The translations under genes were made by a program, and so were the position numbers. The notes under the pieces were generated by a model that was given only the letters and a program-made list of their open reading frames with translations, ran no database searches and was not told the DNA's origin. Of a DNA stretch of 64,000 nucleotides, positions 21,173 through 43,109 are shown in pieces. The stretch lies in assembly GCF_003018255.1 (NCBI RefSeq), contig NZ_CP027440.1. The stretch is one strand, 5' to 3'. Numbering within the stretch: the stretch's first letter is position 1; every line of letters starts with the position of its first letter. This DNA is from Escherichia coli. Its GTDB lineage: Bacteria > Pseudomonadota > Gammaproteobacteria > Enterobacterales > Enterobacteriaceae.

Positions 21173-21210
21173 ATCCATTAGTATAATATCAATGGATAAA
21201 GGCTTCTGTT

Positions 21211-23157
21211 ATGAATTTTGAAGAGCTTATAAATGATATTGAAAGACTCTTAATTGGTAAAGAGTTGCAGTCTATAAATCCTAACACCCCCCCATTATTC
21301 CTTTTAAAAATAGACAGGGATATTGGTAAATATTACGTGTCTGTTTCTTTAAATGCTAAGCCTACGGCAAGGTCAATTTCTGAATTTGAATATATATTTA
21401 ATGACTTACTGCGTAAAGGGTTTTGTAATGTAGATCAGTCATTATATGGTAGCTCTTCAAGCCGTAATCACCCGGAAACAATATTTGCAAACTTGCCTTA
21501 TATTCAATTCTTTAAGTTCAAGAAAAAGAAACATATATTATTACGTAATAAAAATGTACACGAAGCAGGTCAACTTTCTGAATTACAAGGGGCTGAGTCT
21601 CGTGCTATAAGGAAGCAAATAGAAAATTATTTATCTCTAAATTTAAGTGAAATTGCAGAGCAGCAGTTAAAATCGTTGGAAAAAATGTTCGATGCGTATG
21701 ATGCTATTTTAAAAAAATACCCAGGGGATATCCCTGTTATAATGGCTGAGCAAGGCTTGTTGGGATTAAAAAACATTAGCGAAGTACTGATTAATTCTTA
21801 TGTTTCCTTGGATTTTGACAGTAGTGGCGATAAAATAAATAAATTAAGTAAATTTAAACAGGTGGAGTTATTTAAAGAAGATTTATCTTTAGAGGATTTA
21901 ATTGAGTCCCCTGAGATAAGTGGAGTTGATTCAGGTGATAAGAATATTGAGGAACAATCGGAATCAGAATTAGCACCTGAGCAAAAACGTACGGGCATTG
22001 CAAAAATGCTTATGACTACACCAGTTTTAACACTAATTTTTGATCGTGTAAGATATGATGAAATTGAGTTACAACCTGACTTTCAGAGAAAAGACCGAAT
22101 TTGGCCTGACGACAAAAAGTCAAAACTTATTGAATCAATATTAATGAAGCTTCCATTACCGGGGTTTTACTTTGGTGAAAAGCCAAACGGTAACTGGGTA
22201 GTTATTGATGGCCTTCAAAGAACGACTACAATTTGTGATTATATGAGTGGTCATTTCTCATTGAAAGGGCTCTCTATTTTAGAGCACTTAAATGGAAAGA
22301 GTTTTAAAGATCTTACTCGAACCGAGCAACGAGACATTAGAGAGTATCAAATTACGGCTTACCAAATAGAACTAAATGATGATAGTTCTGAATTGGTTGT
22401 AGAACTATTCCATAGAATAAACACTTATGGTGTAAAGTTAAGTAGTCAAGAAATAAGATCTGCACTTAATAAAGGCAATAGCGTAACCTTTTTACGTTAT
22501 TTAGCTTCATTAGAAACGTTCAAAAAAGCGACGCAATTTAAAGTAAAGCCGGACAGGCAAAAAGATATGGAGCTCTGTTTGTCCGCTCTTGCTTTTATGG
22601 TACTTGGTTATAATAACTATGGCCAACATTCGTATGATCATTTTTTATGTAGTGCAATGCAGAAGCTAAATAATTATCCATTAAGCATCATTAATAAAGA
22701 AGAGATTGATGCTGGAACAGCTCTTATTTCTCCTTCAAGTGAAGTCTTTTTAACTTTATATTCAAAATATAATCAGGCTTTAATCTTAGCAAATGAAGTT
22801 TTTGGTGAAATAGCTTTTTCAAAAGATCCGGAAAATAAAAAATCACCTATTAATAAACAACTCTTTGAGTTAATTGTTACTGTTTTCTCTGTATTTGACT
22901 CACATCAAAAGGAGATGATGTTAGCTAATGGTGATAAATTTATTGATAGCTTATACTTGGCTATTGAGGAGAATAGTAGTCGATATGCTAAGTGGGAGTC
23001 TGATACATATGAAAAGGACGATAGAGGATTTAGAGACTCAATATCTACTTCGACAGGTAAAAGAATATCTGTTGTATATCGATTTGATGCTTTTTTAAAT
23101 ATCCTTGGAAAAAGCACAGGAATAACTATTGATAGTAAATTATTACAGGGGGAGTGA
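21211..23157 (+). CDS. DUF262 / ParB-like (GmrSD N-terminal-type) domain protein with unknown N- and C-terminal domains
   Basis: 648 aa; central region has LQPDFQRKDRIW and DGLQR (variant of the DGQQR motif); no recognisable DUF1524/His-Me nuclease motif; AT-rich. Confidence 0.7.
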   Translation: MNFEELINDIERLLIGKELQSINPNTPPLFLLKIDRDIGKYYVSVSLNAKPTARSISEFEYIFNDLLRKGFCNVDQSLYGSSSSRNHPETIFANLPYIQFFKFKKKKHILLRNKNVHEAGQLSELQGAESRAIRKQIENYLSLNLSEIAEQQLKSLEKMFDAYDAILKKYPGDIPVIMAEQGLLGLKNISEVLINSYVSLDFDSSGDKINKLSKFKQVELFKEDLSLEDLIESPEISGVDSGDKNIEEQSESELAPEQKRTGIAKMLMTTPVLTLIFDRVRYDEIELQPDFQRKDRIWPDDKKSKLIESILMKLPLPGFYFGEKPNGNWVVIDGLQRTTTICDYMSGHFSLKGLSILEHLNGKSFKDLTRTEQRDIREYQITAYQIELNDDSSELVVELFHRINTYGVKLSSQEIRSALNKGNSVTFLRYLASLETFKKATQFKVKPDRQKDMELCLSALAFMVLGYNNYGQHSYDHFLCSAMQKLNNYPLSIINKEEIDAGTALISPSSEVFLTLYSKYNQALILANEVFGEIAFSKDPENKKSPINKQLFELIVTVFSVFDSHQKEMMLANGDKFIDSLYLAIEENSSRYAKWESDTYEKDDRGFRDSISTSTGKRISVVYRFDAFLNILGKSTGITIDSKLLQGE

Positions 23158-24305
23158 TGAAAAAAATTACGTCTTTAACATTAAAAAATTTCAAAGCTTA
23201 TAAAGAACAGAGTTTTGATTTTAGTAATTTAACTGTATTTTGCGGTAATAATTCTGTTGGTAAAAGTACGGCTATTCAAGCTATCGGTATGTTTCTCCAA
23301 TCAGATATGAATGGTAACAGTAATCTAAAAATAAATGGCGATTTAGTTCATGTCGGAGACTTCGACGATATTCATAATTTCAGTATGCGTGAGGATGATG
23401 TTTTATATTTAAAATATACATTTGAAGACGATACGGCTTGCTGGGGATATGGTATAGAAGAAGGGGATGCTAGAGAAGAACTTTCTAGGAAAAATGAATT
23501 ACCTTTTATTGGGTGTGATAAACAATTAAGAACTATAACAAACTCACTTAAAGATAACTTTTCATTCCAATATTTGGAAGCGGAGAGATTTGGTCCAAGA
23601 GATAATATTCCATTATCACAGCACAATTATCATGAAGGTTGGCTTGGGAAAAATGGGGAACATACAATTGAAGTTCTTGAGAGTTTGGTCACAAGGAGGC
23701 GTTTAAATTTTTCTGCTCAAGAGGATCCTAGGAAACATGAAGGAATTATTAATAATAATGTTTTCAATCATATTGAAGCATGGATGTCTGAGATTTCACC
23801 AGGGCATCGTATCTCACCTAGAATTGAGGCTAGGGCGAATGTTGCATTTAATGTCATAATCCCTTCACCTGGACAATTAACGAAACCTATTAACATAGGA
23901 TTTGGATTTAGTTATGCTCTTAGTATTGTCACTGCTTTAATGCTGGCATCAAAAAATGAACTCGTTATTATTGAAAATCCTGAGGCTCATCTACATCCAA
24001 GAGGTCAAAGCTATTTAGGACGACTTATTGCTTTATCAGCAAAAGCAGGGATCCAGGTTATTATTGAGACTCATAGTGATCATCTTCTTAATGGCATAAG
24101 AGTAATTGCACGCACAGATCCAACTTTTGATGCTTCTCTTTTTACTCTTTACTATATTTCACGAGAAAATGATGAAACATCTGTCGCCAAAATAAAAATA
24201 AATAATGAAGGGAAACTTTCCGAATGGCCTAGAGGGTTCTTTGATCAACAATCACAGGATATGTATACGATAATGACAGGCTCTTTTGATCATCCCAATA
24301 TTTAA
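23157..24305 (+). CDS. ABC/SMC-like AAA ATPase (AAA_15/AAA_21-type with DUF3696-like C-terminal region)
   Basis: ORF track 23154 (GTG); ATG at 23157 overlaps upstream TGA (TGATG) with GGGGAG RBS. Walker A GNNSVGKST; ENPEAHLHP Walker B/D-loop signature; ETHSDH H-loop. Confidence 0.75.
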   Translation: MKKITSLTLKNFKAYKEQSFDFSNLTVFCGNNSVGKSTAIQAIGMFLQSDMNGNSNLKINGDLVHVGDFDDIHNFSMREDDVLYLKYTFEDDTACWGYGIEEGDAREELSRKNELPFIGCDKQLRTITNSLKDNFSFQYLEAERFGPRDNIPLSQHNYHEGWLGKNGEHTIEVLESLVTRRRLNFSAQEDPRKHEGIINNNVFNHIEAWMSEISPGHRISPRIEARANVAFNVIIPSPGQLTKPINIGFGFSYALSIVTALMLASKNELVIIENPEAHLHPRGQSYLGRLIALSAKAGIQVIIETHSDHLLNGIRVIARTDPTFDASLFTLYYISRENDETSVAKIKINNEGKLSEWPRGFFDQQSQDMYTIMTGSFDHPNI

Positions 24306-24324
24306 TATTGTAGGGACATATAAA

Positions 24325-25209
24325 ATGAAAGCTGGCGTGTTTCTTATTCCTGAATGTTTTGATTTCAATACGGATATTTTATCTTTAAGTTCGGACCTTG
24401 ATCTGGCTTCGAAACTCGTAGTAAATACCCGTTCAGAATTTATTCACTTTATGAAATCTAGGGAGTTTGACTCGAAGATTGCGGAGTTATTGTTTTCCAC
24501 ATCACCTGATTATGCTGGAATGATGTCAAGATTTTACGATCAGCATCTATCAAAAGTTATAAAAATGGATATTAATGACGATGATATTATTGATATTATA
24601 AATAGCGAAGAACCTAAGTATTCTAACCGTTTGTTATCAATTTTTAATACGGGAAAAAAAGATTTAAATATTAAATATGTTAATAGATTAATTGACTCAG
24701 AAATTAAGATGAATGATTATTGTACTGATATCTTATTGAATTACCCAAGAAATGACGAGCAATACTGTGAGGATATACAGCAGGTTTATAAAAATTTAAT
24801 TTTCCTAGATTATCCAGAGGCAAAAGAATTTAAGACATTTAATAGTCTCAAGAGAATGACCGGTGGTTATGATAATTTCTTGAAGGCTATAACCAATTTT
24901 TTAAGTTATATGAATAAATTCGAATTCAAAACGAAAGATATGATGGATACATTGAAAATGATGGAGAGTGATTTAGGATCTCCAGTAACTCCGGAAGGAG
25001 GGGGGAAGAAAAGCCGATCTTTGAAAAGAGATTTTTTAATTAATGGAAAGCTATATACAAATGTAAACTGCGAATTCCATTTGAAATTAGAAAATGTTGA
25101 TGATACTAAGGGAAACAGAAAACACCATAAGAATAGAATTTATTTTGGATTTATTATGATAAGTGATAAAAACAGAGTGGCAATAGCTCATATTGGGGAA
25201 CACATTTGA
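24325..25209 (+). CDS. Hypothetical protein, third gene of the DUF262-ATPase operon
   Basis: ORF track 24286..25209; ATG at 24325 with AGGGA RBS follows the ATPase stop by 20 nt; 294 aa, no recognisable motif. Confidence 0.5.
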   Translation: MKAGVFLIPECFDFNTDILSLSSDLDLASKLVVNTRSEFIHFMKSREFDSKIAELLFSTSPDYAGMMSRFYDQHLSKVIKMDINDDDIIDIINSEEPKYSNRLLSIFNTGKKDLNIKYVNRLIDSEIKMNDYCTDILLNYPRNDEQYCEDIQQVYKNLIFLDYPEAKEFKTFNSLKRMTGGYDNFLKAITNFLSYMNKFEFKTKDMMDTLKMMESDLGSPVTPEGGGKKSRSLKRDFLINGKLYTNVNCEFHLKLENVDDTKGNRKHHKNRIYFGFIMISDKNRVAIAHIGEHI

Positions 25210-25219
25210 AATCATTTTA

Positions 25220-25248
25220 AACCTACTGATAGTATATATCAGTAGGTT
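25220..25248. terminator. Perfect palindromic hairpin between convergent operons (likely bidirectional terminator)
   Basis: AACCTACTGATAGTATATATCAGTAGGTT between stop of the plus-strand operon (25209) and stop of the minus-strand restriction gene (25271). Confidence 0.5.
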
Positions 25249-25270
25249 CATGTTAATTTGATGTTCTTAG

Positions 25271-26344
25271 CTATATAACACAATCTTCCATAAAAGAATC
25301 TAGAAATAAATCATTTATTCCTTTAGGTTTTCTTCGGTCGCATAGAGAGTATAATTCTTCAACTGAAGAGTAAGGGAAGAATTTAGCTTTTAATTCAATG
25401 AATTGGGGCATGTTTGCAAATTCTATCACCTTTGCTCGATATTCATCAGGAGCAACGATAGTCCAACGGATATCTTGTAATCTCGGTGCATGATCATAGA
25501 ATTGTTTCATGCGAGTCAGACCACTTTTTATACCAGTACTGTGTTCAATCTCCATTACTGCTGGCATCATGCGGCCTTCCCTAAACCAAATGCAGTCTAT
25601 AAGACGAGCATCTTTAATCGCATCATTATACGATTGGAGTACTTGCTCATCAGATAATGAACTTATTACACCGTCCATTTGCGCTATAGCTTTACCATTA
25701 TATTGTAAGCTACGATCATTGGCTGCTACCCAAGTATCTAAACCTAAACAATAACCTATTTTTACTAAGGCAATTTGTATCTGAGCATGACGTCTTTTTT
25801 CTTCAATAGTCATGCCTTTAGTCGGTTTAATTGTCTCAATATCAACGCTTTGGTGAACAACATCGAAGCTCATTTCAGAGACAACAATATTAGTCTGGTG
25901 CTCAATTAACAAACCATTAGTATGTGGCATATCTGGCAGAAAAATCAGATGCTTATGTCCTGGTTTTATAGACTTTTGTGCATTCATGATTTCCAGTCTG
26001 GCTGGCCTACACCAATAGAACTCTGGAGTATGTGCGAGCAAGCTCTCCAATACCGAGCGGGTGTTGTAACTGGCACCGAAAACCCTTTCAACGTTGACAG
26101 GTCTGTTTTCTTCGAGTGCATTTGCAAGTCGCCAAAGCATTTGAGTCGAAATACTCTCTGTTTTAGCTGTTGCTTGAGTTTGACCTTTCTTAGGATCAAA
26201 TCTCTTTATTTCGATAGGACCTTCGGGATGTTGGATACGTACAATCTCAATCTTCCCGCTATTCCTATCGTTTATATAGTTAAACAGCGTATTTTTGGGT
26301 AAGCTCGAAATCGCCTGAACCAGATTCGATGCTGTTATCCTCAT
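25271..26344 (-). CDS. Putative Type II restriction endonuclease partnered with the adjacent C5-methyltransferase
   Basis: 357 aa ORF directly downstream of and overlapping the MTase 3' end (about 65 nt, ATG at 26344 with AGGA RBS); no family motif recognised; call is from gene context. Confidence 0.5.
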   Translation of the reverse strand: MRITASNLVQAISSLPKNTLFNYINDRNSGKIEIVRIQHPEGPIEIKRFDPKKGQTQATAKTESISTQMLWRLANALEENRPVNVERVFGASYNTRSVLESLLAHTPEFYWCRPARLEIMNAQKSIKPGHKHLIFLPDMPHTNGLLIEHQTNIVVSEMSFDVVHQSVDIETIKPTKGMTIEEKRRHAQIQIALVKIGYCLGLDTWVAANDRSLQYNGKAIAQMDGVISSLSDEQVLQSYNDAIKDARLIDCIWFREGRMMPAVMEIEHSTGIKSGLTRMKQFYDHAPRLQDIRWTIVAPDEYRAKVIEFANMPQFIELKAKFFPYSSVEELYSLCDRRKPKGINDLFLDSFMEDCVI

Positions 26345-27419
26345 TACTGTATCCTAAATGTTGCAAAATTGATTGGGCAATACCGAGCGCGGCGATATAG
26401 GGAACTCCGTTTCCGACTGTTTTAAACATATTCGACAAAGTCATATCCCCTGGTAGCTCAAAATTTTTTGGCAAAGACTGGATTGCCAATGCTTCAGCGA
26501 CCGTAATACGACGAGGTTTGTATGGGTGAAGGTGAACTTCATTATTACCATATGCTGCTGTTGGAGAGTATCTCCAGCGATGAAGCCTTTTATATGATTT
26601 TTTACTATCGTCGCCTTCTTCTACTGACTGGAATCTTGCTAAACCGGCTCGGGCCGTAAATACATGTTTAGCGTTTGGATGATTGGTAACATCGTTTTTC
26701 TCGAACCAGTATTCTATAGTAAGTTCTTCTGGAATACCTTGCGGGCATTCCATACTTGAGTCTTCTTCGTATGTGTTTGTTGTTGGCCAAGGGAACTGGA
26801 AAGCTTCCTTATTGGGGTATATTTGGCCACTCCATTCGAAGTTTTTGGCTAAAGACTTATCAAGAAAACCAACTAAAATAATCCTTTCTCGATCTTGAGG
26901 CGCACCGTATTCAATTGAATTAATCAATCTTTCATGCAGGATATATCCTACTGAAGCTAGTTCATTCTTAATTTGTTCGAAAAATTCTCTATGTTTAAGA
27001 GTCCGGTATAAGCCTTTAACGTTTTCAAAAAGGAAGAAATCAGGCATCATTTCAATTATCAGGTCAATGTAACTTTGTGATAATTTGCCATTTTCACCAT
27101 CTTTGCCTTTGTTTTTGCCAGCAACAGAAAAGTCAGGGCATGGTGGTCCGCCAATGAAGCCCACTAGGCGGTTTTCACCTTTCAGTGTTTTCATGCTATG
27201 CTTAATCACTGAATGCTCAATAGTTTCAATGCTTTCTTGGGCATACCCAAAGCGTGGCGGCTGTTTGCCAAGTTTTTTTCTTGAGTGTTTATACGCGTCC
27301 ATGAAGGGAGGATGGAATTCATTGACGAAAACCACCTCATACCCGGCATTTTCGAAGCCTAGGTCAAGAAAACCTGATCCTGAAAAGAATGAAAATATAG
27401 CGGGTTTCATTGTGGACAT
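26280..27419 (-). CDS. DNA cytosine-5 methyltransferase (Dcm-like)
   Basis: 379 aa; motif I FSGSGF, PC motif GGPPCPDFSVAGK, ENV motif ENVKGL. Confidence 0.85.
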   Translation of the reverse strand: MSTMKPAIFSFFSGSGFLDLGFENAGYEVVFVNEFHPPFMDAYKHSRKKLGKQPPRFGYAQESIETIEHSVIKHSMKTLKGENRLVGFIGGPPCPDFSVAGKNKGKDGENGKLSQSYIDLIIEMMPDFFLFENVKGLYRTLKHREFFEQIKNELASVGYILHERLINSIEYGAPQDRERIILVGFLDKSLAKNFEWSGQIYPNKEAFQFPWPTTNTYEEDSSMECPQGIPEELTIEYWFEKNDVTNHPNAKHVFTARAGLARFQSVEEGDDSKKSYKRLHRWRYSPTAAYGNNEVHLHPYKPRRITVAEALAIQSLPKNFELPGDMTLSNMFKTVGNGVPYIAALGIAQSILQHLGYSNEDNSIESGSGDFELTQKYAV

Positions 27420-27644
27420 TTTATACCTATCAAGTTAGCTTAAATTTTTACTAAATATCTCGCTGTACGATCCTACTATTTTACATGATAACTTGTTAAT
27501 TATCAATTTACTTTTTAATATATTAGCAAATAAGACCTGGCACTACTTCAGATTAGATAGTATTCATTGCTATAAAGTTAGGTGTTAATATATTGATTAA
27601 TAGTATAAGCTGCTATTATAGATTTAGAAACCGAAGGAACTTAT

Positions 27645-28100
27645 ATGCCTGATATGAGGTTATTTAAATCAAAAAACACCAAACTTGAGTTAAGAATCAG
27701 GAAGCCGTTGTTTGCCAGAGGATTTCGTTATCGATTGCATAATAGTGGTTTGCCTGGTAGACCAGATATGTATTTCCCTAAATACAATGCAGTCATTTTT
27801 ATCCATGGCTGTTTTTGGCATGGGCATGATAACGGCTGCCCTATATCTCACACTCCTAAAAATAATGAATCGTACTGGCAAAATAAAATCAATAAAAATC
27901 AAGAAAGAGATGTCAAAAATCAATATGTTCTTGCATCTAAAAACATCCGCGTTCTGATTATATGGGAGTGTGCAATAAAACTTAAAAGTATTGATTTTGT
28001 CGATTTTATTGATTACATCGATGAATGGCTTAGAGGTGGGGCAAATTCAACACAGATGAGCGCAAAGGAACCAATGCCGACTTTTGAGTTTCCGAAATGA
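27645..28100 (+). CDS. vsr: Very short patch repair endonuclease (Vsr)
   Basis: 151 aa; Vsr-like sequence incl. FIHGCFWHGH; divergent from the C5-MTase as is typical. Confidence 0.85.
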   Translation: MPDMRLFKSKNTKLELRIRKPLFARGFRYRLHNSGLPGRPDMYFPKYNAVIFIHGCFWHGHDNGCPISHTPKNNESYWQNKINKNQERDVKNQYVLASKNIRVLIIWECAIKLKSIDFVDFIDYIDEWLRGGANSTQMSAKEPMPTFEFPK

Positions 28101-28282
28101 ATTATTATGACAAGTTCCCTTGAGTGGTAATATCTAACATCGTTATTTGCTAATATATATATGAAATAAAGTAATTGCCAAGAAATTTATTACAAAACAA
28201 GACCCGCAAAAAATCTCTTTCCATGTGGGGTTTTATTAGCTATTAGTGTTTGGTTAAATTATTAACCATCAATAGGCATCCT

Positions 28283-28423
28283 ATGCTTCAATCTCTGAAC
28301 CACTTAACGCTCGCCGTCAGTAATTTGCAAACTAGCCTGACATTCTGGCGCGATTTACTAGGGCTACATGTGGGAGATTTAGCATCCCGACTGACGCAGT
28401 GCCGGGAGAGGCCTTGCTCTTGA
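28283..28423 (+). pseudogene. fosA: Remnant of a fosA-like (glutathione transferase, fosfomycin resistance) gene with large internal deletion
   Basis: 46-codon ORF MLQSLNHLTLAVSNLQTSLTFWRDLLGLHVGDLASRLTQCRERPCS: first ~28 aa match the FosA N-terminus and the rest matches the FosA C-terminal HVGSLAARLAACRE region, from memory. Confidence 0.45.
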
Positions 28424-28555
28424 ATGCGTTTCGGACCTGGAAAATAATTACGCAACTTTGTGATCTTCCACCCAGTATTCAATTTTATGTCCCATTTTGG
28501 GGGCAAATCCTCAAAATAAAATCTCACAAACCATTATTTTTCAACGAATTAAACG

Positions 28556-28588
28556 CAAAGGCGAGTCCGGCCTTCGACCTTCGCACCA
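28556..28588. repeat. Degenerate copy of the 3' end of tRNA-Leu (leuX): candidate distal att repeat (attR) of the genomic island
   Basis: GCGAGTCCGGCCTTCGACCTTCGCACCA resembles the leuX 3' end GGTTCGAGTCCGGCCTTCGGCACCA (from memory); no full tRNA present. Confidence 0.45.
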
Positions 28589-29353
28589 TCGGAACATCAA
28601 TAGACGTCAACGGACGTTTTTTTATGACTGAAATCCGCGCCACACAAGGCTTTTCGCTATTTTTCGCTCAACCTAAGTCAACCTACATCAACTTACTGAT
28701 GTGGATACAGCTACAGCTGCGGCTATATCCCGATTCGATAATGTTTGTACCCACACAAAACCCTTGAAAGGCTACAAGGCTGAAATTGTCTAAACCATAG
28801 AGATGATTTTTATGATCCAGTCTTTCTCTTGTTGAGATAGTTCCAGTTTGCTCACTCGTGTTAAGAAGGTATTGATCACCTGAACATCCGAATTGGTGAG
28901 CCTATTTAATAGAGCGGGTGGTATACCTTTACTAACAATCGCTTTGCGGTGACTTTCGTAGTTTTTATTACTCATTGTTGATCCTCAAAAATCATTGTAT
29001 GGCGGCATTGATCGTTTCCAGCAACCTTTACTTACTCACTTCGAACTGCATCCTCGTAGACTGTTCCACTACAATAATCGAAAAGGCGCGGATGTCCATT
29101 CAGGTATCCCGCTAATACGTATAGCAATAACAATGGCTTATGCGGCGCGCGCTGTTCACCCTTGTGCCAGATTTTTATATTGGCAATTGCCTGCTGTAGC
29201 GATTTACTGGAAGCCATTGATATCCCTGGCAGTGAAATAATTGCGATCATGCTCGCAAATTTTCTGCTGTTCAAGCCTGCAAGTGAAGATATATTACCTT
29301 GATCTCATTTGTTTTTTTGCTGCCTGTTCTGAGAACGTATAAGGACATTCTCC

Positions 29354-30004
29354 ATGAATAAACTCCCTGATCATCTTCCGCGGCGGTATATCATCGAAGC
29401 TATCCATTTATGGGATGCGGGAGAAACTCATCAGTTCCAGCCTGCGCGGTTGTATGAGATTGAATATCATGGCCGACGTTACCCCTCGAAGGCGATTGCT
29501 GGCATCGCAGCGACATTGATGACGGGGACGCAATTTACCCCTGCGGATTTCACCGGCGGAATAAAATCTAAATGCGTCAAACTACTCATAGAGCAGGGAT
29601 TTCATATTCATCAGGATAAAGCCGCTGCGGCTCCCATAGCCGACGTTCTGTTCCCGGATGAGTTGCCGTCGCAGGAGACATACCTTGAAGGTGCGGCGAT
29701 AAAGGTGACAGTAAACCGCTATGAACGCGATAAAAAGGCCCGAGATAAAGCGGTCGAACATCATGGATGCCAGTGCAACGTATGCGGCGTTGATCTGGTG
29801 AAGATCTATGGTGATATCGCTGAAGGCTTTATCCATATGCATCACCTGGTGCCGCTTTCAGCCATTAAAGAGGATTACCAGCTGGATCCAGTTAATGATT
29901 TGCTGCCTGTGTGCCCTAATTGCCATGCGATGCTGCACCGACGCAAACCACCGTTTTCACCGGAGGAGTTAAAAGCGTTGATGGATGCAAATAAATCAAA
30001 TTAA
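29354..30004 (+). CDS. HNH endonuclease with uncharacterised N-terminal domain
   Basis: 216 aa; C-terminal HNH motif CQCNVCG...HMHHLVPLS...N...CPNCH. Confidence 0.7.
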   Translation: MNKLPDHLPRRYIIEAIHLWDAGETHQFQPARLYEIEYHGRRYPSKAIAGIAATLMTGTQFTPADFTGGIKSKCVKLLIEQGFHIHQDKAAAAPIADVLFPDELPSQETYLEGAAIKVTVNRYERDKKARDKAVEHHGCQCNVCGVDLVKIYGDIAEGFIHMHHLVPLSAIKEDYQLDPVNDLLPVCPNCHAMLHRRKPPFSPEELKALMDANKSN

Positions 30005-30011
30005 TGAACGC

Positions 30012-30992
30012 TCACCTTTCGCGCCAAAACCGCAAAATTGCTTCTACAAACCTGTCAGAAATAATCCCCCGACGGGCTGCCGCGCTGAAATGACTGCTTC
30101 GCAGTGCCGTCGTCCAGTTCTCCGGTGACCGGTACGCTGAACCGTAATATCCCGTGCTTAAATCGTCCGGATCTTCATCAGGCGCGTTCGTCAGTCCTCT
30201 TTCACCTTGTTGCTGGAAGTCGACGAAAATAATATTGGCTAAAACATTATTTTGATAATTGCCATAAATCGCTTCATACGCATGAGGGAAATTTTCTTTC
30301 CAGTACCAGGTGGTATCGCCGCAAAACCACGGTGCGTCAGTAATATTATTAAGCTGAGAATGGTATTGTTTTAGATCCCTACGAAAGGCTTCAACCATAT
30401 GATTAAAGTGTTGAGGGTGTGACGAGTAGTCACAGGTCATTAAGTCAAATTCGCCTTGCATCCAGCATACGCCGAGGAATTTGTTCTGCGGATTTTTTGC
30501 CAGTGCGGCTCGCGTTCTGCTGACTAAATCCTGGTACAGCGGAGTATCCGTTCCCCAACGACAAGCATCATGGCTGGCTCCGTGCCGTTCTGAATATGTC
30601 CCTTCGCTGCCCGCGGTAAAAGCCGATCCGCCACGGCAACACGGAACGATGAGAACCCCTGCGTTATCAGGAATAAAGGGCAGTAATTTCCGTGCAATAT
30701 GCAGTGCCTGGCCAACGGTGCCGTACTGTGTTTGATGATTTGTTGCCAGAGGATGGTGATAACCCTGCATATCCTGAACATCGTGTGGGCAGTGAGTCAG
30801 TGGAATAATGTCGTTAAAGTGACATGACGGGCCTCCGGGATGCGTATGCGCAAATCTCGCTAATTGTTTAATTCTGGGATGAGGCGCATCTTCCCTGTCC
30901 GGTAATGGCAGTCCTTCGCCATACGCCATGGCATTAGACTGACCAGCAACGGTAAGAACATAGTAATAATCGGGCGATATTATTGCGTTCAT
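30012..30992 (-). CDS. nanS: N-acetyl-9-O-acetylneuraminate esterase NanS
   Basis: ORF 30012..31019 trimmed to ATG at 30992 (MNAIISPDYYYVLTVAGQSNAMAYG...), 326 aa; nanS-nanM-nanC context. Confidence 0.85.
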   Translation of the reverse strand: MNAIISPDYYYVLTVAGQSNAMAYGEGLPLPDREDAPHPRIKQLARFAHTHPGGPSCHFNDIIPLTHCPHDVQDMQGYHHPLATNHQTQYGTVGQALHIARKLLPFIPDNAGVLIVPCCRGGSAFTAGSEGTYSERHGASHDACRWGTDTPLYQDLVSRTRAALAKNPQNKFLGVCWMQGEFDLMTCDYSSHPQHFNHMVEAFRRDLKQYHSQLNNITDAPWFCGDTTWYWKENFPHAYEAIYGNYQNNVLANIIFVDFQQQGERGLTNAPDEDPDDLSTGYYGSAYRSPENWTTALRSSHFSAAARRGIISDRFVEAILRFWRER

Positions 30993-33339: not shown

Positions 33340-34350
33340 ATCAAAAATCACGCAATCCATACAACAAAACGAGATTTGCAATTCGTGTCACAAAATATGT
33401 CGATCTTTTTCTAAGAGGCAGATGCCATGTGAAGCCAGACGAACACTTGCGGTGGTCTTCAAAAATTAAAGATTTTATTTTAACTGTCTGTTTTATAAAA
33501 AATTTATTTAGAATCTAAACAAAGAAAGCTTTGCAAGCTAACTCAGTGAGCTTGGTGAAAATAAGTGTTTACCCGCCATCAGGCTGAGCATAATTCTCAT
33601 CATGAAATATGTTTCTTGGTTTGTGGCTTGTAACTGGTCACTCCTGATGTCGATCTGGAGAGGCTTGTTGATGTTGGTGTTTTCAGGATGATGTTTCACT
33701 TAGTTTGTTTGCCGTATCGCCCGGCGAATAGCTGTGATTGAGGAAGGTTTAAGTCGTAGTGACCAAAGCCATAGTTACCAACGGATGTAGATGAAAAAGC
33801 GTCGCCTGCGTTCCCCCATATCTCCAGGATAAAAGGGAATGTAACAATCTCATGGCCTAAGCTGACGAACCAGGCAGGAATAATCGCTAGGGATCTAAGA
33901 ATTAGCATGATAATAGCCACTAAGAAATTACTGCGTTCCATGAAATAGCCATTTTGTGGCAAATGCAGTTGACTAATAATGTCATATGTGAGACGGCTAG
34001 TTGAACGAATATTAAATTTTGCTGAATTTTTTATGTTGATTTTACTTGTTACAGAACATATCACATGATATATAGATAAGATTAGTTGCATTAATGATGA
34101 GGGTTATTATTCGATTCGTATCAGATTGATAAATATATAAAGGTACATAGCATGCAAGAGCATGGCGTTTGTATGGCAAAGTTATTATAAGTAACTATCG
34201 CTACTCCATTTAAGTTCGCTCAGAAGAACTGGTCCACTTACGTTAGTTATTAAGCAAACGTTCGCTTTTATAAACATAATCAGGATAAAAATGTTGGATT
34301 ATTGCTAACCCAGCACAGCTAGTGCGCGTCTGTAATTATAAGGGAAAACG

Positions 34351-34953
34351 ATGAAGAATAAGGCTGATAACAAAAAAAGGAACTTCCTGACCCATAGTGA
34401 AATCGAATCACTCCTTAAAGCAGCAAATACCGGGCCTCATGCAGCACGTAATTATTGTCTGACTTTGCTTTGTTTTATTCATGGTTTCCGGGCGAGTGAA
34501 ATTTGCCGATTGAGGATTTCGGATATTGATCTTAAGGCAAAGTGTATATATATCCATCGATTAAAAAAAGGCTTTTCAACAACGCACCCGCTATTGAACA
34601 AAGAAATTCAGGCTTTAAAAAACTGGTTGAGTATCCGTACTTCTTATCCGCATGCTGAGAGCGAGTGGGTATTCTTATCACGTAAGGGGAATCCACTTTC
34701 TCGGCAACAGTTTTACCATATTATCTCGACTTCCGGTGGTAATGCCGGGTTGTCACTGGAGATTCATCCGCACATGTTACGCCATTCGTGTGGTTTTGCT
34801 TTGGCGAATATGGGAATAGATACGCGACTTATCCAGGATTATCTTGGGCATCGCAATATTCGTCATACTGTCTGGTATACCGCCAGCAATGCAGGGCGTT
34901 TTTACGGCATCTGGGATAGAGCCAGAGGGAGACAGCGTCACGCTGTTTTATAG
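34351..34953 (+). CDS. fimB: Type 1 fimbriae regulatory recombinase FimB
   Basis: 200 aa, tyrosine recombinase motifs (HxxR...Y); matches FimB. Confidence 0.95.
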   Translation: MKNKADNKKRNFLTHSEIESLLKAANTGPHAARNYCLTLLCFIHGFRASEICRLRISDIDLKAKCIYIHRLKKGFSTTHPLLNKEIQALKNWLSIRTSYPHAESEWVFLSRKGNPLSRQQFYHIISTSGGNAGLSLEIHPHMLRHSCGFALANMGIDTRLIQDYLGHRNIRHTVWYTASNAGRFYGIWDRARGRQRHAVL

Positions 34954-35430
34954 AGATAGTTGAGATACCAGGGATGGTGTTAAAAACTACATTATTCTTA
35001 CGATATATCAAAAATGATTAACCATTTATTAATTGATGTTATTGTAAGTGTGATTCTTAATTATCATAATAAACATTAAGTTAACCATATCCATACAAAA
35101 TACAATGGCTTATGTTCTTCAAAATAAATAAACAAAATCATTCATAAATTTACACATCACTTAAATTCTCCTGTTTCCACACTTTTTTCTTTATTTTTTA
35201 AGCAACTGGAAGTTAATCTTCTGCAATCTATTGTTATATTGAATCAAATCAATGAAAATAGATGTTGTCACATCAGTGATATTTTATTTTTGTATGATAT
35301 TTAATGTAATTGACTGATAGCCACATCACTTCGTGTGTGGTTATCTTTTTATCTATTGGGCTAATTTTGACCGATTGAGGTTTCCTATAGGTATTCATTC
35401 AAATATATCTCAGTTAGGAGTACTACTATT

Positions 35431-36027
35431 GTGAGTAAACGTCGTTATCTTACCGGTAAAGAAGTTCAGGCCATGATGCAGGCGGTTTGTTACGGGGCAA
35501 CGGGAGCCAGAGATTATTGTCTTATTCTGTTGGCATATCGGCATGGGATGCGTATTAGTGAACTGCTTGATCTGCATTATCAGGATCTTGACCTTAATGA
35601 AGGTCGAATAAATATTCGCCGACTGAAGAACGGATTTTCTACCGTTCACCCGTTACGTTTTGATGAGCGTGAAGCCGTGGAACGCTGGACCCAGGAACGT
35701 GCTAACTGGAAAGGCGCTGACCGGACCGACGCTATATTTATTTCTCGCCGCGGGAGTCGGCTTTCTCGCCAGCAGGCCTATCGCATTATTCGCGATGCAG
35801 GTATTGAAGCTGGAACCGTAACGCAGACTCATCCTCATATGTTAAGGCATGCTTGCGGTTATGAACTGGCGGAGCGTGGTGCCGATACCCGTTTAATTCA
35901 GGATTATCTCGGGCATCGAAATATTCGCCATACTGTACGTTATACCGCCAGTAATGCTGCTCGTTTTGCCGGATTATGGGAAAGAAATAATCTCATAAAC
36001 GAAAAATTAAAAAGAGAAGAGGTTTGA
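35431..36027 (+). CDS. fimE: Type 1 fimbriae regulatory recombinase FimE
   Basis: 198 aa starting at GTG (MSKRRYLTGKEVQAMMQAVCYG...); matches FimE. Confidence 0.95.
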   Translation: MSKRRYLTGKEVQAMMQAVCYGATGARDYCLILLAYRHGMRISELLDLHYQDLDLNEGRINIRRLKNGFSTVHPLRFDEREAVERWTQERANWKGADRTDAIFISRRGSRLSRQQAYRIIRDAGIEAGTVTQTHPHMLRHACGYELAERGADTRLIQDYLGHRNIRHTVRYTASNAARFAGLWERNNLINEKLKREEV

Positions 36028-36074
36028 TTTAACTCATTGATAATAAAGTTAAAAAACAAATAAATACAAGACAA

Positions 36075-36388
36075 TTGGGGCCAAACTGTCCATATCATAA
36101 ATAAGTTACGTATTTTTTCTCAAGCATAAAAATATTAAAAAACGATAAAAAGCATCTAACTGTTTGATATGTAAATTATTTCTCTTGTAAATTAATTTCA
36201 CATCACCTCCGCCAAATGTAAAGCTAACGTTTCTGTGGCTCGACGCATCTTCCTCATTCTTCTCTACAAAAACCACCTCATGCAATATAAAAATCTATAA
36301 ATAAAGATAACAATAGAATATTAAGCCAACAAATAAACTGAAAAAGTTTGTGCGCGATGCTTTCCTCTATGAGTCAAAATGGCCCCAA
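36075..36388 (-). promoter_or_regulatory. fimS: fimS invertible switch, apparently in phase-OFF orientation
   Basis: 9-bp inverted repeats TTGGGGCCA (36075-36083) and TGGCCCCAA (36380-36388). The fimA promoter (-35 TTGAGA at 36118-36123, 18-bp spacer, -10 TATGAT at 36094-36099) is on the minus strand next to the fimE-proximal repeat, pointing toward fimE. Confidence 0.7.
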
Positions 36389-36507
36389 ATGTTTCATCTT
36401 TTGGGGGAAAACTGTGCAGTGTTGGCAGTCAAACTCGTTGACAAAACAAAGTGTACAGAACGACTGCCCATGTCGATTTAGAAATAGTTTTTTGAAAGGA
36501 AAGCAGT

Positions 36508-37062
36508 ATGAAAATTAAAACTCTGGCAATTGTTGTTCTGTCGGCTCTGTCCCTGAGTTCTACAGCGGCTCTGGCTGAAACTACACCCACGACGGTAAAT
36601 GGTGGGACCGTTCACTTTAAAGGGGAGGTTGTTAACGCCGCTTGCGCAGTTGATGCAGGCTCTGTTGATCAAACTGTTCAGTTAGGGCAGGTTCGTACAG
36701 CATCGCTGGCACAAGAAGGAGCAACCAGTTCTGCTGTCGGTTTTAACATTCAACTGAACGATTGTGACACTACTGTTGCAGACAAAGCTGCTATTGCCTT
36801 CCTTGGTACCGCAATTGATGGAACTCATCCTAACGTATTAGCTTTGCAGAGTTCAGCTGCGGGTAGCGCAACAAAAGTTGGTGTGCAGATCCTGGACAGA
36901 ACGGGTGCTGCGCTGGCGCTGGACGGTGCGACATTTAGTGCACAAACAACCTTGAATAACGGTACCAACACCATTCCGTTCCAGGCGCGTTATTATGCAA
37001 TCGGCGAGGCAACCCCGGGTGCTGCTAATGCGGATGCGACCTTCAAGGTTCAGTATCAATAA
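36508..37062 (+). CDS. fimA: Type 1 fimbrial major subunit FimA (allelic variant)
   Basis: 184 aa, signal peptide, pilin fold ending FKVQYQ; N-terminal mature region differs from the K-12 allele as I recall it. Confidence 0.95.
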
Positions 37063-37126
37063 CCTACCCAGGTTCAGGGACGTCATTACGGGCAGGGATG
37101 CCCACCCTTGTGCGATAAAAATAACG

Positions 37127-37666
37127 ATGAAAAGGAAGAGATTATTTCTATTAGCGTCGTTGCTGCCAATGTTTGCTCTGGCCGGAAATAAATGGAATAC
37201 CACGCTGCCCGGCGGAAATATGCAATTTCAGGGCGTCATTATTGCGGAAACTTGCCGAGTTGAAGCTGGTGATAAACAAATGACGGTCAATATGGGGAAA
37301 ATCAGCAGTAACCGGTTTCATGCGGTAGGGGAAGATAGCGCACCGGTGCCTTTTGTTATTCATTTACGGGAATGTAGCACGGTGGTGAGTGAACGTGTGG
37401 GTGTGGCGTTTCACGGTGTCGCGGATGGTAAAAATCCGGATGTGCTTTCCGTGGGAGAGGGGCCAGGGATAGCCACCAATATTGGCGTAGCGTTATTTGA
37501 TGATGAAGGAAACCTCGTACCGATTAATCGTCCTCCAGCAAACTGGAAACGGCTTTACTCAGGCTCTACTTCGCTACATTTCATCGCCAAATATCGTGCT
37601 ACCGGGCGTCGGGTTACTGGCGGCATCGCCAATGCCCAGGCCTGGTTCTCTTTAACCTATCAGTAA
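37127..37666 (+). CDS. fimI: Fimbrial protein FimI
   Basis: ORF 36995..37666 trimmed to ATG at 37127 ([19 protein letters not shown]), 179 aa. Confidence 0.9.
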
Positions 37667-37702
37667 TTGTTCAGCAGATAATGTGATAACAGGAACAGGA
37701 CA

Positions 37703-38428
37703 GTGAGTAATAAAAACGTCAATGTAAGGAAATCGCAGGAAATAACATTCTGCTTGCTGGCAGGTATCCTGATGTTCATGGCAATGATGGTTGCCGGACG
37801 CGCTGAAGCGGGAGTGGCCTTAGGTGCGACCCGCGTAATTTATCCGGCAGGGCAAAAACAAGTGCAACTTGCCGTGACAAATAATGATGAAAATAGCACC
37901 TATTTAATTCAATCATGGGTGGAAAATGCCGATGGTGTAAAGGATGGTCGTTTTATCGTGACGCCACCTCTGTTTGCGATGAAGGGAAAAAGAGAGAATA
38001 CCTTACGTATTCTTGATGCAACAAATAACCAATTGCCACAGGATCGGGAAAGTTTATTCTGGATGAACGTTAAAGCGATTCCGTCAATGGATAAATCAAA
38101 ATTGACTGAGAATACGCTACAGCTCGCAATTATCAGCCGCATTAAGCTGTACTATCGCCCGGCTAAATTAGCGTTGCCACCCGATCAGGCCGCAGAAAAA
38201 TTAAGATTTCGTCGTAGCGCGAATTCTCTGACGCTGATTAACCCGACACCCTATTACCTGACGGTAACAGAGTTGAATGCCGGAACCCGGGTTCTTGAAA
38301 ATGCATTGGTGCCTCCAATGGGCGAAAGCACGGTTAAATTGCCTTCTGATGCAGGAAGCAATATTACTTACCGAACAATAAATGATTATGGCGCACTTAC
38401 CCCCAAAATGACGGGCGTAATGGAATAA
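37703..38428 (+). CDS. fimC: Periplasmic fimbrial chaperone FimC
   Basis: 241 aa, PapD-like chaperone. Confidence 0.95.
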   Translation: MSNKNVNVRKSQEITFCLLAGILMFMAMMVAGRAEAGVALGATRVIYPAGQKQVQLAVTNNDENSTYLIQSWVENADGVKDGRFIVTPPLFAMKGKRENTLRILDATNNQLPQDRESLFWMNVKAIPSMDKSKLTENTLQLAIISRIKLYYRPAKLALPPDQAAEKLRFRRSANSLTLINPTPYYLTVTELNAGTRVLENALVPPMGESTVKLPSDAGSNITYRTINDYGALTPKMTGVME

Positions 38429-38494
38429 CGCAGGGGGAATTTTTCGCCTGAATAAAAAGAATTGACTGCCGGGTGATTTTAAACCGGAGGAATA

Positions 38495-41131
38495 ATGTCA
38501 TATCTGAATTTAAGACTTTACCAGCGAAACACACAATGCTTGCATATTCGTAAGCATCGTTTGGCTGGTTTTTTTGTCCGGCTCTTTGTCGCCTGTGCTT
38601 TTGCCGCACAGGCACCTTTGTCATCTGCCGAACTCTATTTTAATCCGCGCTTTTTAGCGGATGATCCCCAGGCTGTGGCCGATTTATCGCGTTTTGAAAA
38701 TGGGCAAGAATTACCGCCAGGGACGTATCGCGTCGATATCTATTTGAATAATGGTTATATGGCAACGCGTGATGTCACATTTAACACGGGCGACAGTGAA
38801 CAAGGGATTGTTCCCTGCCTGACACGCGCGCAACTTGCCAGTATGGGGCTGAATACGGCTTCTGTCTCCGGTATGAATCTGCTGGCGGATGATGCCTGCG
38901 TGCCATTAACCTCAATGATCCATGACGCTACTGCGCATTTAGATGTTGGTCAGCAGCGACTCAACCTGACGATCCCTCAGGCATTTATGAGTAATCGCGC
39001 GCGTGGTTATATTCCTCCTGAGTTATGGGATCCCGGTATTAATGCCGGATTGCTCAATTATAATTTCAGCGGAAATAGTGTACAGAATCGAATTGGGGGT
39101 AACAGCCATTATGCATATTTAAACCTACAGAGTGGGTTAAATATTGGTGCGTGGCGTTTACGCGACAATACCACCTGGAGTTATAACAGTAGCGACAGTT
39201 CATCAGGTAGCAAAAATAAATGGCAGCATATCAATACCTGGCTTGAGCGAGACATAATTCCGTTACGTTCCCGGCTGACGCTGGGTGATGGTTATACTCA
39301 GGGCGATATTTTCGATGGTATTAACTTTCGCGGCGCACAATTGGCCTCAGATGACAATATGTTACCCGATAGCCAAAGAGGATTTGCCCCGGTGATCCAC
39401 GGTATTGCTCGTGGTACTGCACAGGTCACTATTAAACAAAATGGGTATGACATTTATAATAGTACGGTGCCACCGGGGCCTTTTACCATCAACGATATCT
39501 ATGCCGCAGGTAATAGTGGTGACTTGCAGGTAACGATTAAAGAGGCTGACGGCAGTACGCAGATTTTTACCGTACCCTATTCGTCAGTCCCGCTTTTGCA
39601 GCGTGAAGGGCATACACGTTATTCCATTACGGCAGGAGAATACCGTAGTGGAAATGCGCAACAGGAAAAACCCCGCTTTTTCCAGAGTACATTACTCCAC
39701 GGCCTTCCGGCTGGCTGGACAATATATGGTGGAACGCAACTGGCGGATCGTTATCGTGCGTTTAATTTCGGTATCGGGAAAAATATGGGGGCACTGGGCG
39801 CTCTGTCTGTGGATATGACGCAGGCTAATTCCACACTTCCCGATGACAGTCAGCATGACGGACAATCGGTGCGTTTTCTTTATAACAAATCGCTCAATGA
39901 GTCAGGCACGAATATTCAGTTAGTGGGTTACCGTTATTCGACCAGTGGGTATTTTAATTTCGCTGATACAACATACAGTCGAATGAATGGCTACAACATC
40001 GAAACACAGGATGGAGTTATTCAGGTTAAGCCGAAATTCACCGACTATTACAATCTCGCTTATAACAAACGCGGGAAATTACAGCTCACCGTTACTCAGC
40101 AACTCGGGCGCTCATCAACACTGTATTTGAGTGGTAGCCATCAAACTTATTGGGGAACGAGTAATGTCGATGAGCAATTCCAGGCTGGTTTAAATACTGC
40201 ATTCGAAGATATCAACTGGACGCTCAGCTATAGCCTGACGAAAAACGCCTGGCAAAAAGGACGGGATCAGATGTTAGCGCTTAACGTCAATATTCCTTTC
40301 AGCCACTGGCTGCGTTCTGACAGTAAATCTCAGTGGCGACATGCCAGTGCCAGTTACAGCATGTCACACGATCTCAACGGTCGGATGACCAATCTGGCCG
40401 GTGTATACGGTACGTTGCTGGAAGACAACAACCTCAGCTATAGCGTGCAAACCGGTTACGCCGGGGGAGGTGATGGTAATAGCGGAAGTACAGGCTACGC
40501 CACGCTGAATTATCGCGGTGGTTACGGCAATGCCAACATCGGTTACAGCCATAGCGATGATATTAAGCAGCTCTATTACGGAGTCAGCGGTGGGGTACTG
40601 GCTCATGCCAATGGCGTAACGCTGGGGCAGCCGTTAAACGATACGGTGGTGCTTGTTAAAGCGCCTGGCGCAAAAGATGCAAAAGTCGAAAACCAGACGG
40701 GGGTGCGTACCGACTGGCGCGGTTATGCCGTGCTGCCTTATGCCACTGAATATCGGGAAAACAGAGTAGCGCTGGATACCAATACCCTGGCTGATAACGT
40801 CGATTTAGATAACGCGGTCGCTAACGTTGTTCCCACCCGTGGGGCGATCGTGCGAGCAGAGTTTAAAGCGCGCGTTGGGATAAAACTGCTCATGACGCTA
40901 ACCCACAATAATAAGCCGCTGCCGTTTGGGGCGATGGTGACATCAGAGAGTAGCCAGAGTAGCGGCATTGTTGCGGATAATGGTCAGGTTTACCTCAGCG
41001 GAATGCCTTTAGCGGGAAAAGTTCAGGTGAAATGGGGAGAAGAGGAAAATGCTCACTGTGTCGCCAATTATCAACTGCCACCAGAGAGTCAGCAGCAGTT
41101 ATTAACCCAGCTATCAGCTGAATGTCGTTAA
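38495..41131 (+). CDS. fimD: Outer-membrane usher FimD
   Basis: 878 aa usher. Confidence 0.95.
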   Translation: MSYLNLRLYQRNTQCLHIRKHRLAGFFVRLFVACAFAAQAPLSSAELYFNPRFLADDPQAVADLSRFENGQELPPGTYRVDIYLNNGYMATRDVTFNTGDSEQGIVPCLTRAQLASMGLNTASVSGMNLLADDACVPLTSMIHDATAHLDVGQQRLNLTIPQAFMSNRARGYIPPELWDPGINAGLLNYNFSGNSVQNRIGGNSHYAYLNLQSGLNIGAWRLRDNTTWSYNSSDSSSGSKNKWQHINTWLERDIIPLRSRLTLGDGYTQGDIFDGINFRGAQLASDDNMLPDSQRGFAPVIHGIARGTAQVTIKQNGYDIYNSTVPPGPFTINDIYAAGNSGDLQVTIKEADGSTQIFTVPYSSVPLLQREGHTRYSITAGEYRSGNAQQEKPRFFQSTLLHGLPAGWTIYGGTQLADRYRAFNFGIGKNMGALGALSVDMTQANSTLPDDSQHDGQSVRFLYNKSLNESGTNIQLVGYRYSTSGYFNFADTTYSRMNGYNIETQDGVIQVKPKFTDYYNLAYNKRGKLQLTVTQQLGRSSTLYLSGSHQTYWGTSNVDEQFQAGLNTAFEDINWTLSYSLTKNAWQKGRDQMLALNVNIPFSHWLRSDSKSQWRHASASYSMSHDLNGRMTNLAGVYGTLLEDNNLSYSVQTGYAGGGDGNSGSTGYATLNYRGGYGNANIGYSHSDDIKQLYYGVSGGVLAHANGVTLGQPLNDTVVLVKAPGAKDAKVENQTGVRTDWRGYAVLPYATEYRENRVALDTNTLADNVDLDNAVANVVPTRGAIVRAEFKARVGIKLLMTLTHNNKPLPFGAMVTSESSQSSGIVADNGQVYLSGMPLAGKVQVKWGEEENAHCVANYQLPPESQQQLLTQLSAECR

Positions 41132-41140
41132 GGAGGCGTG

Positions 41141-41671
41141 ATGAGAAACAAACCTTTTTATCTTCTTTGCGCTTTTTTGTGGCTGGCGGTAAGTCACGCT
41201 TTGGCTGCGGATAGCACGATTACTATCCGCGGCTATGTCAGAGATAATGGCTGTAGTGTGGCCGCTGAATCAACCAATTTTACTGTTGATCTGATGGAAA
41301 ACGCGGTGAAGCAATTTAACAACATTGGCGCGACGACTCCTGTCGTTCCATTTCGTATTTTGCTGTCACCCTGTGGTAATGCCGTTTCTGCCGTAAAAGT
41401 TGGGTTTACCGGTGTTGCAGATAGCCACAATGCCAACCTGCTTGCACTTGAAAATACGGTGTCAGCGGCTGCGGGACTGGGAATACAGCTTCTGAATGAG
41501 CAACAAAATCAGATACCCCTTAATGCCCCATCGTCCGCGATTTCGTGGACGACCCTGACGCCGGGTAAACCAAATACGCTGAATTTTTACGCCCGGCTAA
41601 TGGCGACACAGGTGCCTGTCACTGCGGGGCATATCAATGCCACGGCTACCTTCACTCTTGAATATCAGTAA
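41141..41671 (+). CDS. fimF: Fimbrial minor subunit FimF
   Basis: ORF 41138 trimmed to second ATG ([22 protein letters not shown]). Confidence 0.9.
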
Positions 41672-41683
41672 CTGGAGATGCTC

Positions 41684-42187
41684 ATGAAATGGCGCAAACG
41701 TGGGTATTTATTGGCGGCAATGTTGGCGCTCGCAAGTGCGACGATACAGGCAGCCGATGTCACCATCACGGTGAACGGTAAGGTCGTCGCCAAACCGTGC
41801 ACGGTTTCCACCACCAATGCCACGGTAGATCTCGGCGATCTTTATTCTTTCAGTCTGATGTCTGCCGGGGCGGCATCGGCCTGGCATGATGTTGCGCTTG
41901 AGTTGACTAATTGTCCGGTGGGAACGTCGAGGGTCACCGCCGGCTTCAGCGGGGCAGCCGACAGTACCGGATATTATAAAAACCAGGGGACCGCGCAAAA
42001 CATCCAGTTAGAGCTACAGGATGACAGTGGCAACACATTGAATAGTGGCGCAACCAAAACAGTTCAGGTGGATGATTCCTCACAATCAGCGCACTTCCCG
42101 TTACAGGTCAGAGCATTGACGGTAAATGGCGGAGCCACTCAGGGAACCATTCAGGCAGTAATTAGCATCACCTATACCTACAGCTGA
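41684..42187 (+). CDS. fimG: Fimbrial minor subunit FimG
   Basis: ORF 41678 trimmed to MKWRKRGYLLAAMLALASA. Confidence 0.9.
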   Translation: MKWRKRGYLLAAMLALASATIQAADVTITVNGKVVAKPCTVSTTNATVDLGDLYSFSLMSAGAASAWHDVALELTNCPVGTSRVTAGFSGAADSTGYYKNQGTAQNIQLELQDDSGNTLNSGATKTVQVDDSSQSAHFPLQVRALTVNGGATQGTIQAVISITYTYS

Positions 42188-42206
42188 AGCCGAAGAGATG
42201 ATTGTA

Positions 42207-43109
42207 ATGAAACGAGTTATTTACCTGTTTGCTGTACTGCTGATGGGCTGGTCGGTAAATGCCTGGTCATTCGCCTGTAAAACCGCCAATGGCACCGCTA
42301 TCCCTATTGGCGGTGGCAGCGCTAATGTTTATGTAAACCTTGCGCCTGCCGTGAATGTGGGGCAAAACCTGGTCGTGGATCTTTCGACGCAAATCTTTTG
42401 CCATAACGATTATCCGGAAACCATTACAGACTATGTCACACTGCAACGAGGCTCGGCTTATGGCGGCGTGTTATCTAATTTTTCCGGGACCGTAAAATAT
42501 AGTGGCAGTAGCTATCCATTTCCGACCACTAGCGAAACGCCGCGCGTTGTTTATAATTCGAGAACGGATAAGCCGTGGCCGGTGGCGCTTTATTTGACGC
42601 CTGTGAGCAGTGCGGGCGGGGTGGCGATTAAAGCTGGCTCATTAATTGCCGTGCTAATTTTGCGACAGACCAACAACTATAACAGCGATGATTTCCAGTT
42701 TGTGTGGAATATTTACGCCAATAATGATGTGGTGGTGCCTACTGGCGGCTGTGATGTTTCTGCTCGTGATGTCACCGTTACTCTGCCGGACTATCCCGGT
42801 TCGGTGCCGATTCCTCTTACCGTTTATTGTGCGAAAAGCCAAAACCTGGGGTATTACCTCTCCGGCACAACCGCAGATGCGGGCAACTCGATTTTCACCA
42901 ATACCGCCTCGTTTTCACCAGCACAGGGCGTCGGCGTACAGTTGACGCGCAACGGTACGATTATTCCAGCGAATAACACGGTATCGTTAGGAGCAGTGGG
43001 GACTTCGGCGGTAAGTCTGGGATTAACGGCAAATTACGCACGTACCGGAGGGCAGGTGACTGCAGGGAATGTGCAATCGATTATTGGCGTTACTTTTGTT
43101 TATCAATAA
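42207..43109 (+). CDS. fimH: Mannose-binding adhesin FimH
   Basis: ORF 42198 trimmed to MKRVIYLFAVLLMGWSVNAWS; 300 aa; lectin domain begins FACKTANGTAIPIGGGSANVYVNLAPAVNVGQ. Confidence 0.95.
   Translation: MKRVIYLFAVLLMGWSVNAWSFACKTANGTAIPIGGGSANVYVNLAPAVNVGQNLVVDLSTQIFCHNDYPETITDYVTLQRGSAYGGVLSNFSGTVKYSGSSYPFPTTSETPRVVYNSRTDKPWPVALYLTPVSSAGGVAIKAGSLIAVLILRQTNNYNSDDFQFVWNIYANNDVVVPTGGCDVSARDVTVTLPDYPGSVPIPLTVYCAKSQNLGYYLSGTTADAGNSIFTNTASFSPAQGVGVQLTRNGTIIPANNTVSLGAVGTSAVSLGLTANYARTGGQVTAGNVQSIIGVTFVYQ

Follow-up and report, generated by a model that had tools for sequence, protein, structure and literature searches.

The fim locus in this 64,000-nucleotide stretch of Escherichia coli DNA (the window) raises the question of which orientation of the invertible element fimS was recorded there, and of what that orientation says about the strain. 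Our reading, to which we give a probability of about 0.95, is that positions 36075-36388 are the canonical E. coli fimS phase switch in phase OFF, the reversible and commoner state, and that this was the state of the majority of the sequenced culture. The system is already known, and the window holds a textbook switch in its usual database appearance.

A repeat scan of the window found perfect 9-bp inverted repeats, TTGGGGCCA and TGGCCCCAA, which bound a segment of 314 bp. The element and its ends were as follows.

36075..36388, no strand assigned: fimS invertible element, 314 bp, OFF orientation (from repeats, alignment and in-silico digests)
36075..36083, plus strand: IRL, 9-bp inverted repeat TTGGGGCCA, exact reverse complement of IRR
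36380..36388, plus strand: IRR, 9-bp inverted repeat TGGCCCCAA, exact reverse complement of IRL

Both the length of 314 bp and the 9-bp repeat 5'-TTGGGGCCA are given for fimS in reviews (PMC8777976, PMC11316696). The segment lies in the fimE-fimA intergenic region, which is 480 bp long and located upstream of fimAICDFGH. The same scan found further perfect 8- to 9-bp inverted repeats within the same ~700 bp, and a 9-bp pair by itself has no significance. Because the repeats, the promoter hexamers, and the count of IHF matches were each not above chance, the identification of the element rests on homology and context. Between the stop codon of fimE and the start codon of fimA, the window and MG1655 were colinear, with a mean column identity of 99%, and the fimS of the window was 97.8% identical to K-12 fimS. 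Seven SNPs relative to MG1655 were read from the alignment within the element (36146, 36184, 36213, 36215, 36266, 36292, and 36352), and all seven were outside the repeats, promoter hexamers, and IHF cores. In other genomes, the matches to the switch region were located between annotated fimE and fimA (4719 genomes). At the level of sequence, homology and context are unambiguous for the identification of fimS.

The promoter and the IHF sites were then located as predicted features.

36094..36123, minus strand: predicted fimA promoter, -35 TTGAGA (36123-36118), 18-bp spacer, -10 TATGAT (36099-36094), 10/12 hexamer matches
36030..36042, minus strand: IHF consensus match, candidate IHF-1, outside the switch and adjoining IRL; TATCAATGAGTTA fits WATCAANNNNTTR
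36157..36169, minus strand: IHF consensus match, candidate IHF-2, within the switch; TATCAAACAGTTA fits the consensus

In a sigma-70 scan of positions 35900-36600, three promoter-like sites were observed, compared with 2.1 ± 1.6 in shuffled sequences. TTGAGA with an 18-bp spacer and TATGAT was the top-scoring site of the three, and both runners-up, on the plus strand at 36164-36193 and on the minus strand at 36313-36284, scored 9/12. An earlier note on this DNA, made from the sequence alone, had placed fimS at the positions given above, and it had located both the segment and the hexamers correctly; the repeats are perfect and the element is homologous to that of MG1655. The same note had called this promoter the only good sigma70 promoter of the segment. 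It is indeed the best of the three, at 10/12, but it is not the only one, as the two other matches at 9/12 show. The putative -10 hexamer sits 10 bp inside IRL, and the promoter is directed toward fimE. We take TTGAGA and TATGAT to be the fimA promoter hexamers (Olsen and Klemm 1994). None of the papers searched had both "fimA promoter" and TATGAT.

The BstUI and Fis sites have been described as promoter-distal, with the fimA promoter in the opposite half of fimS (PMC9993118). Because the BstUI end is the fimA side in the window, the promoter would be expected on the fimE side. The scan and this published placement both agree with the claim of the earlier note that the promoter adjoins the fimE-side repeat on the minus strand and reads toward fimE. 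Of the IHF sites, IHF-1 is reported to adjoin IRL and IHF-2 to lie within fimS (PMC9993118). The consensus had four matches in 64 kb, against 2.8 expected, and two of the four were at fimS, where IHF-1 and IHF-2 were expected. A terminator scan found no intrinsic terminator in the region, which fits the reported Rho-dependent terminator in fimS.

The orientation of the element was tested without relying on the promoter assignment, using published assays run in silico, colinearity with reference genomes, and a natural strain in which the segment is inverted. The restriction sites used in the orientation assays were as follows.

36107..36112, no strand assigned: SnaBI site TACGTA, orientation-assay site (site search, in-silico digest)
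36353..36356, no strand assigned: BstUI site CGCG, the sole one in the OL20/OL4 amplicon, cut at position 539 (in-silico digest)
36371..36375, no strand assigned: HinfI site GAGTC, orientation-assay site (single site)

The primer pairs of the BstUI and SnaBI assays were both located in the window, with one mismatch in each reverse primer. In the BstUI assay, for which the primers are OL20 and OL4, the OFF orientation is reported to yield fragments of 539 and 187 bp and the ON orientation fragments of 433 and 293 bp (PMC9993118). The in-silico digest of the window yielded 539 and 188 bp, and the digest after inverting 36075-36388 yielded 293 and 434 bp. In the SnaBI assay, which uses a 601-bp product, the reported fragments are 440 and 161 bp for OFF and 403 and 198 bp for ON (PMC11724981). 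With the primers of that assay (CAGTAATGCTGCTCGTTTTGCCG and CAGAGCCGACAGAACAACG), the window yielded 161 and 440 bp, and the inverted segment yielded 405 and 196 bp. A HinfI orientation assay on a 650-bp product has also been described (PMC6727828). In addition, the UTI89 reference genome is stated to carry fimS in the OFF orientation (PMC6458436), and the alignment showed that the window is colinear with both the UTI89 reference and MG1655 across the whole switch. In strain Z142-7, the flanks were identical to those of the window and the segment was inverted exactly between the 9-bp repeats. In that strain, TTGAGAAAAAATACGTAACTTATTTATGAT lies just within IRR and TTGAGA...TATGAT reads into fimA, which is the ON arrangement.

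These results support the OFF orientation for the fimS of the window, as far as it can be read from sequence. The earlier note had reached the same orientation, and the two digests together with the UTI89 colinearity bear it out. It had also described the ON state as one in which the promoter adjoins the fimA-side repeat and is directed into fimA, an arrangement that was seen in Z142-7. Of the checks that it had suggested, the comparison with an ON-orientation fimS found Z142-7 inverted relative to the window, and the SnaBI assay yielded the OFF fragments of 161 and 440 bp. Its position for the SnaBI site TACGTA, 36106-36111, was one base off.

The opposite assignment, in which the recorded orientation is really ON and the segment carries the true fimA promoter on its plus strand, could draw on the weaker plus-strand match at 36164-36193 (TTGATA, 18 bp, TAAATT; 9/12). 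However, two experimentally calibrated restriction assays yield the OFF pattern on the window, the UTI89 reference with which the window is colinear is stated to be OFF (PMC6458436), and the published promoter end, opposite that of the BstUI and Fis sites (PMC9993118), is the fimE side here. The ON assignment is therefore almost certainly wrong; the in-silico digest result refutes it.

The orientation in the window was compared with that in other E. coli genomes. A query of 571 bp across the switch, in the configuration of the window, was run against a set of 5426 complete E. coli genomes, and an orientation was called when the match covered at least 80% of the query in one colinear piece; the same rule was used for the query inverted in silico. 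The locus was matched in 4719 of the 5426 genomes, and 707 were without a match to the 571-bp region. The orientation of the window (OFF) was found in 4456 of the 4719 genomes (~94%) and the inverted orientation (ON) in 247 (~5%), whereas neither orientation fitted in 16, thereby making OFF the default look of the fim locus in databases. Inversion at the repeats was thus seen across genomes, with 247 inverted and with breakpoints located at the repeats in Z142-7. An excess of OFF among deposits is expected from the ON-to-OFF bias of FimE and from the use of DNA from routine cultures. Prolonged static culture is reported to enrich the ON orientation and agar plate culture the OFF orientation (PMC6727828).

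The recorded orientation could also be a choice made by the assembly from a mixed culture, or a reference-guided artefact, with no clear OFF majority behind it. Both orientations do occur in cultures, where the mixture is detectable by short-read mapping (PMC6458436), and the 94% share of OFF could partly mirror common culture conditions. Even so, a consensus assembler gives the majority orientation, cultures in shaken broth or on agar are reported as OFF-biased controls (PMC6727828), and the 247 genomes deposited as ON argue that assembly does not impose the orientation of the reference. We consider such an origin unlikely and keep to an OFF majority in the sequenced culture. The earlier note had worded its claim as one about the sequenced molecule or assembly consensus, and this caution was well placed, as the record is silent on how the minority of the cultured cells was oriented. 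The inversion of fimS is reversible and an assembly captures the majority of one culture; the orientation is therefore a snapshot of the majority state of that culture and not a trait of the strain.

Whether the switch of the window is competent or locked was judged from the element and from the genes around it. The fim cluster at 34351-43109 is in the standard E. coli order.

34351..34953, plus strand: fimB, tyrosine recombinase inverting fimS both ways; 200-aa ORF, V86I relative to K-12 FimB, annotated as FimB in the near-identical JNE23-011
35431..36027, plus strand: fimE, tyrosine recombinase with ON-to-OFF bias; 198-aa ORF, protein identical to K-12 FimE
36508..37062, plus strand: fimA, major fimbrial subunit, promoterless in the OFF orientation; 184-aa ORF, allelic variant of K-12 FimA
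37127..43109, plus strand: fimI, fimC, fimD, fimF, fimG, and fimH; all open reading frames

All seven fim structural genes are intact in the annotation of JNE23-011. The nanC-fimB regulatory region (1.45 kb) is intact and 98% identical to that of K-12. Neither fimB nor fimE contained an insertion, the nanC-fimB region was likewise free of insertions, and no deletion was found in fimS. From the full-length switch, the perfect repeats, and the intact recombinases, IHF sites, and fim genes, the element is therefore read as a competent switch: it looks like one in its commoner phase and not like a locked one, and we infer from these features that the strain would switch.

A defect in the switch or in the recombinases could instead have locked fimS genetically in the OFF state. 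Locked or crippled lineages do exist, among them EHEC with its switch mutation and ST131 with its insertion in fimB (PMC6458436), and the fimS of the window carries seven SNPs relative to K-12. Against a lock, however, fimS has its complete length of 314 bp and its repeats are perfect. FimE matches the K-12 protein exactly, a single conservative change separates FimB from its K-12 counterpart, fimB, fimE, and the nanC-fimB region are without insertion, and the IHF consensus sites are intact. The SNPs spare the repeats and the promoter hexamers, and several of them are common to UTI89, which is known to switch. A locked state is thus highly improbable and was rejected on the length of the switch, the repeats, FimB, FimE, and the nanC-fimB region.

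Two other observations were made within the cluster and its regulatory region. Just past the fimA stop, at ~37073-37107 on the plus strand, a stretch is identical to the MG1655 stretch annotated as the small RNA FimR2. An Rfam search of the whole window at the gathering threshold returned no match, this FimR2-like stretch included. A 131-aa ORF at 33696-34091 on the minus strand, within the nanC-fimB region, has no annotated counterpart at that place in K-12 and is probably spurious.

The competent switch in phase OFF would operate by the known route. FimB and FimE, encoded alongside, would invert the promoter-bearing fimS by site-specific recombination at the 9-bp repeats. FimB inverts the element both ways and FimE mainly from ON to OFF, and both act at the 9-bp repeats and flanking half-sites. 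IHF and Lrp bend the DNA for synapsis, while H-NS and Fis modulate the bias (PMC9993118, PMC11316696). Inversion joins the fim operon to its promoter or separates the two, and it also links or unlinks fimE and a Rho-dependent terminator inside fimS (PMC9993118). In the OFF orientation, the fimA promoter would adjoin IRL and point at the 3' end of fimE, so that fimAICDFGH would be promoterless and no type 1 fimbriae would be made, and fimE would be joined to the Rho-dependent terminator inside fimS. For readers of the record, the orientation tells that the fim operon in it is cut off from its promoter.

The OFF-oriented fimA promoter might further produce an antisense RNA that spans the 3' end of fimE and has a function, and, separately, the lineage SNPs in fimS might shift the occupancy of Lrp, Fis, or H-NS and so bias switching toward OFF. 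Taken jointly, these possibilities are very doubtful, and nothing was found in the analysis that points to SNP-driven bias or to an antisense transcript.

The remainder of the window was compared with JNE23-011, to which positions 2-34580 are 99.99% identical. By the annotation of that genome, positions 1 to ~20100, with cargo to ~30100, belong to a PFGI-1/pKLC102-class integrative conjugative element. The element contains a conjugative transfer ATPase, TIGR037xx ICE proteins, TraD, PilL2, ParB, and a RelE/ParE-CopG toxin-antitoxin pair, and it occupies the site, upstream of the nan-fim region, at which K-12 carries yjh genes. A tRNA scan of the whole window found no tRNA gene, and the attachment site of the element would therefore lie outside the window. 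The topoisomerase III gene of the element (13886-15691, minus strand) has an in-frame TAG at 14294-14296, which splits it into abutting ORFs of 465 and 135 aa in the same frame. The gene is annotated in JNE23-011 as a pseudogene with an internal stop.

Between the core of the element and nanS, at ~21200-30100, lies cargo of the defence type (JNE23-011 annotation). This cargo includes a DUF262 and DUF3696 pair, a DNA cytosine methyltransferase beside a very-short-patch repair endonuclease, a remnant phosphorothioated-DNA-binding restriction endonuclease, and an HNH endonuclease. The nanS gene for sialate O-acetylesterase (~30426-30992, minus strand) is truncated at its C terminus and adjoins the inserted DNA, and nanM and nanC are intact. 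The same truncated nanS is present in UTI89, and the junction is therefore common to other lineages. The mdtM gene (59810-61051, minus strand) is an uninterrupted 413-aa ORF in the window, whereas in JNE23-011 it is annotated as a pseudogene that contains an internal stop. Because of this difference, the source of the window is probably a close relative of JNE23-011 and not that exact record.

Finally, we compared the switch with known systems. The fimS of K-12 MG1655 agrees with that of the window in the gene order nanC-fimB-fimE-fimS-fimA, the length of 314 bp, the 9-bp repeats, the hexamers, and the orientation. In contrast, the fimA allele of MG1655 encodes 182 aa and that of the window 184 aa, FimB differs by V86I, and MG1655 has yjh genes upstream where the window has the integrative conjugative element. 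The fimS of UTI89 shares several non-K-12 SNPs with the window and differs by a small number of other SNPs. UTI89 also encodes additional recombinases (FimX) at sites that are unlinked to fim and beyond the region that the window covers. The EHEC fimS mutation and the ST131 fimB insertion are likewise associated with OFF or OFF-biased states (PMC6458436), but the window is without the defects that were checked. The ipuS/upaE, hyxS, and Klebsiella fimS systems similarly combine short inverted repeats, an internal promoter, and neighbouring tyrosine recombinases. However, these systems are at other loci and have other repeat sequences and targets, and the element of the window is fimS itself and not a paralogous switch.
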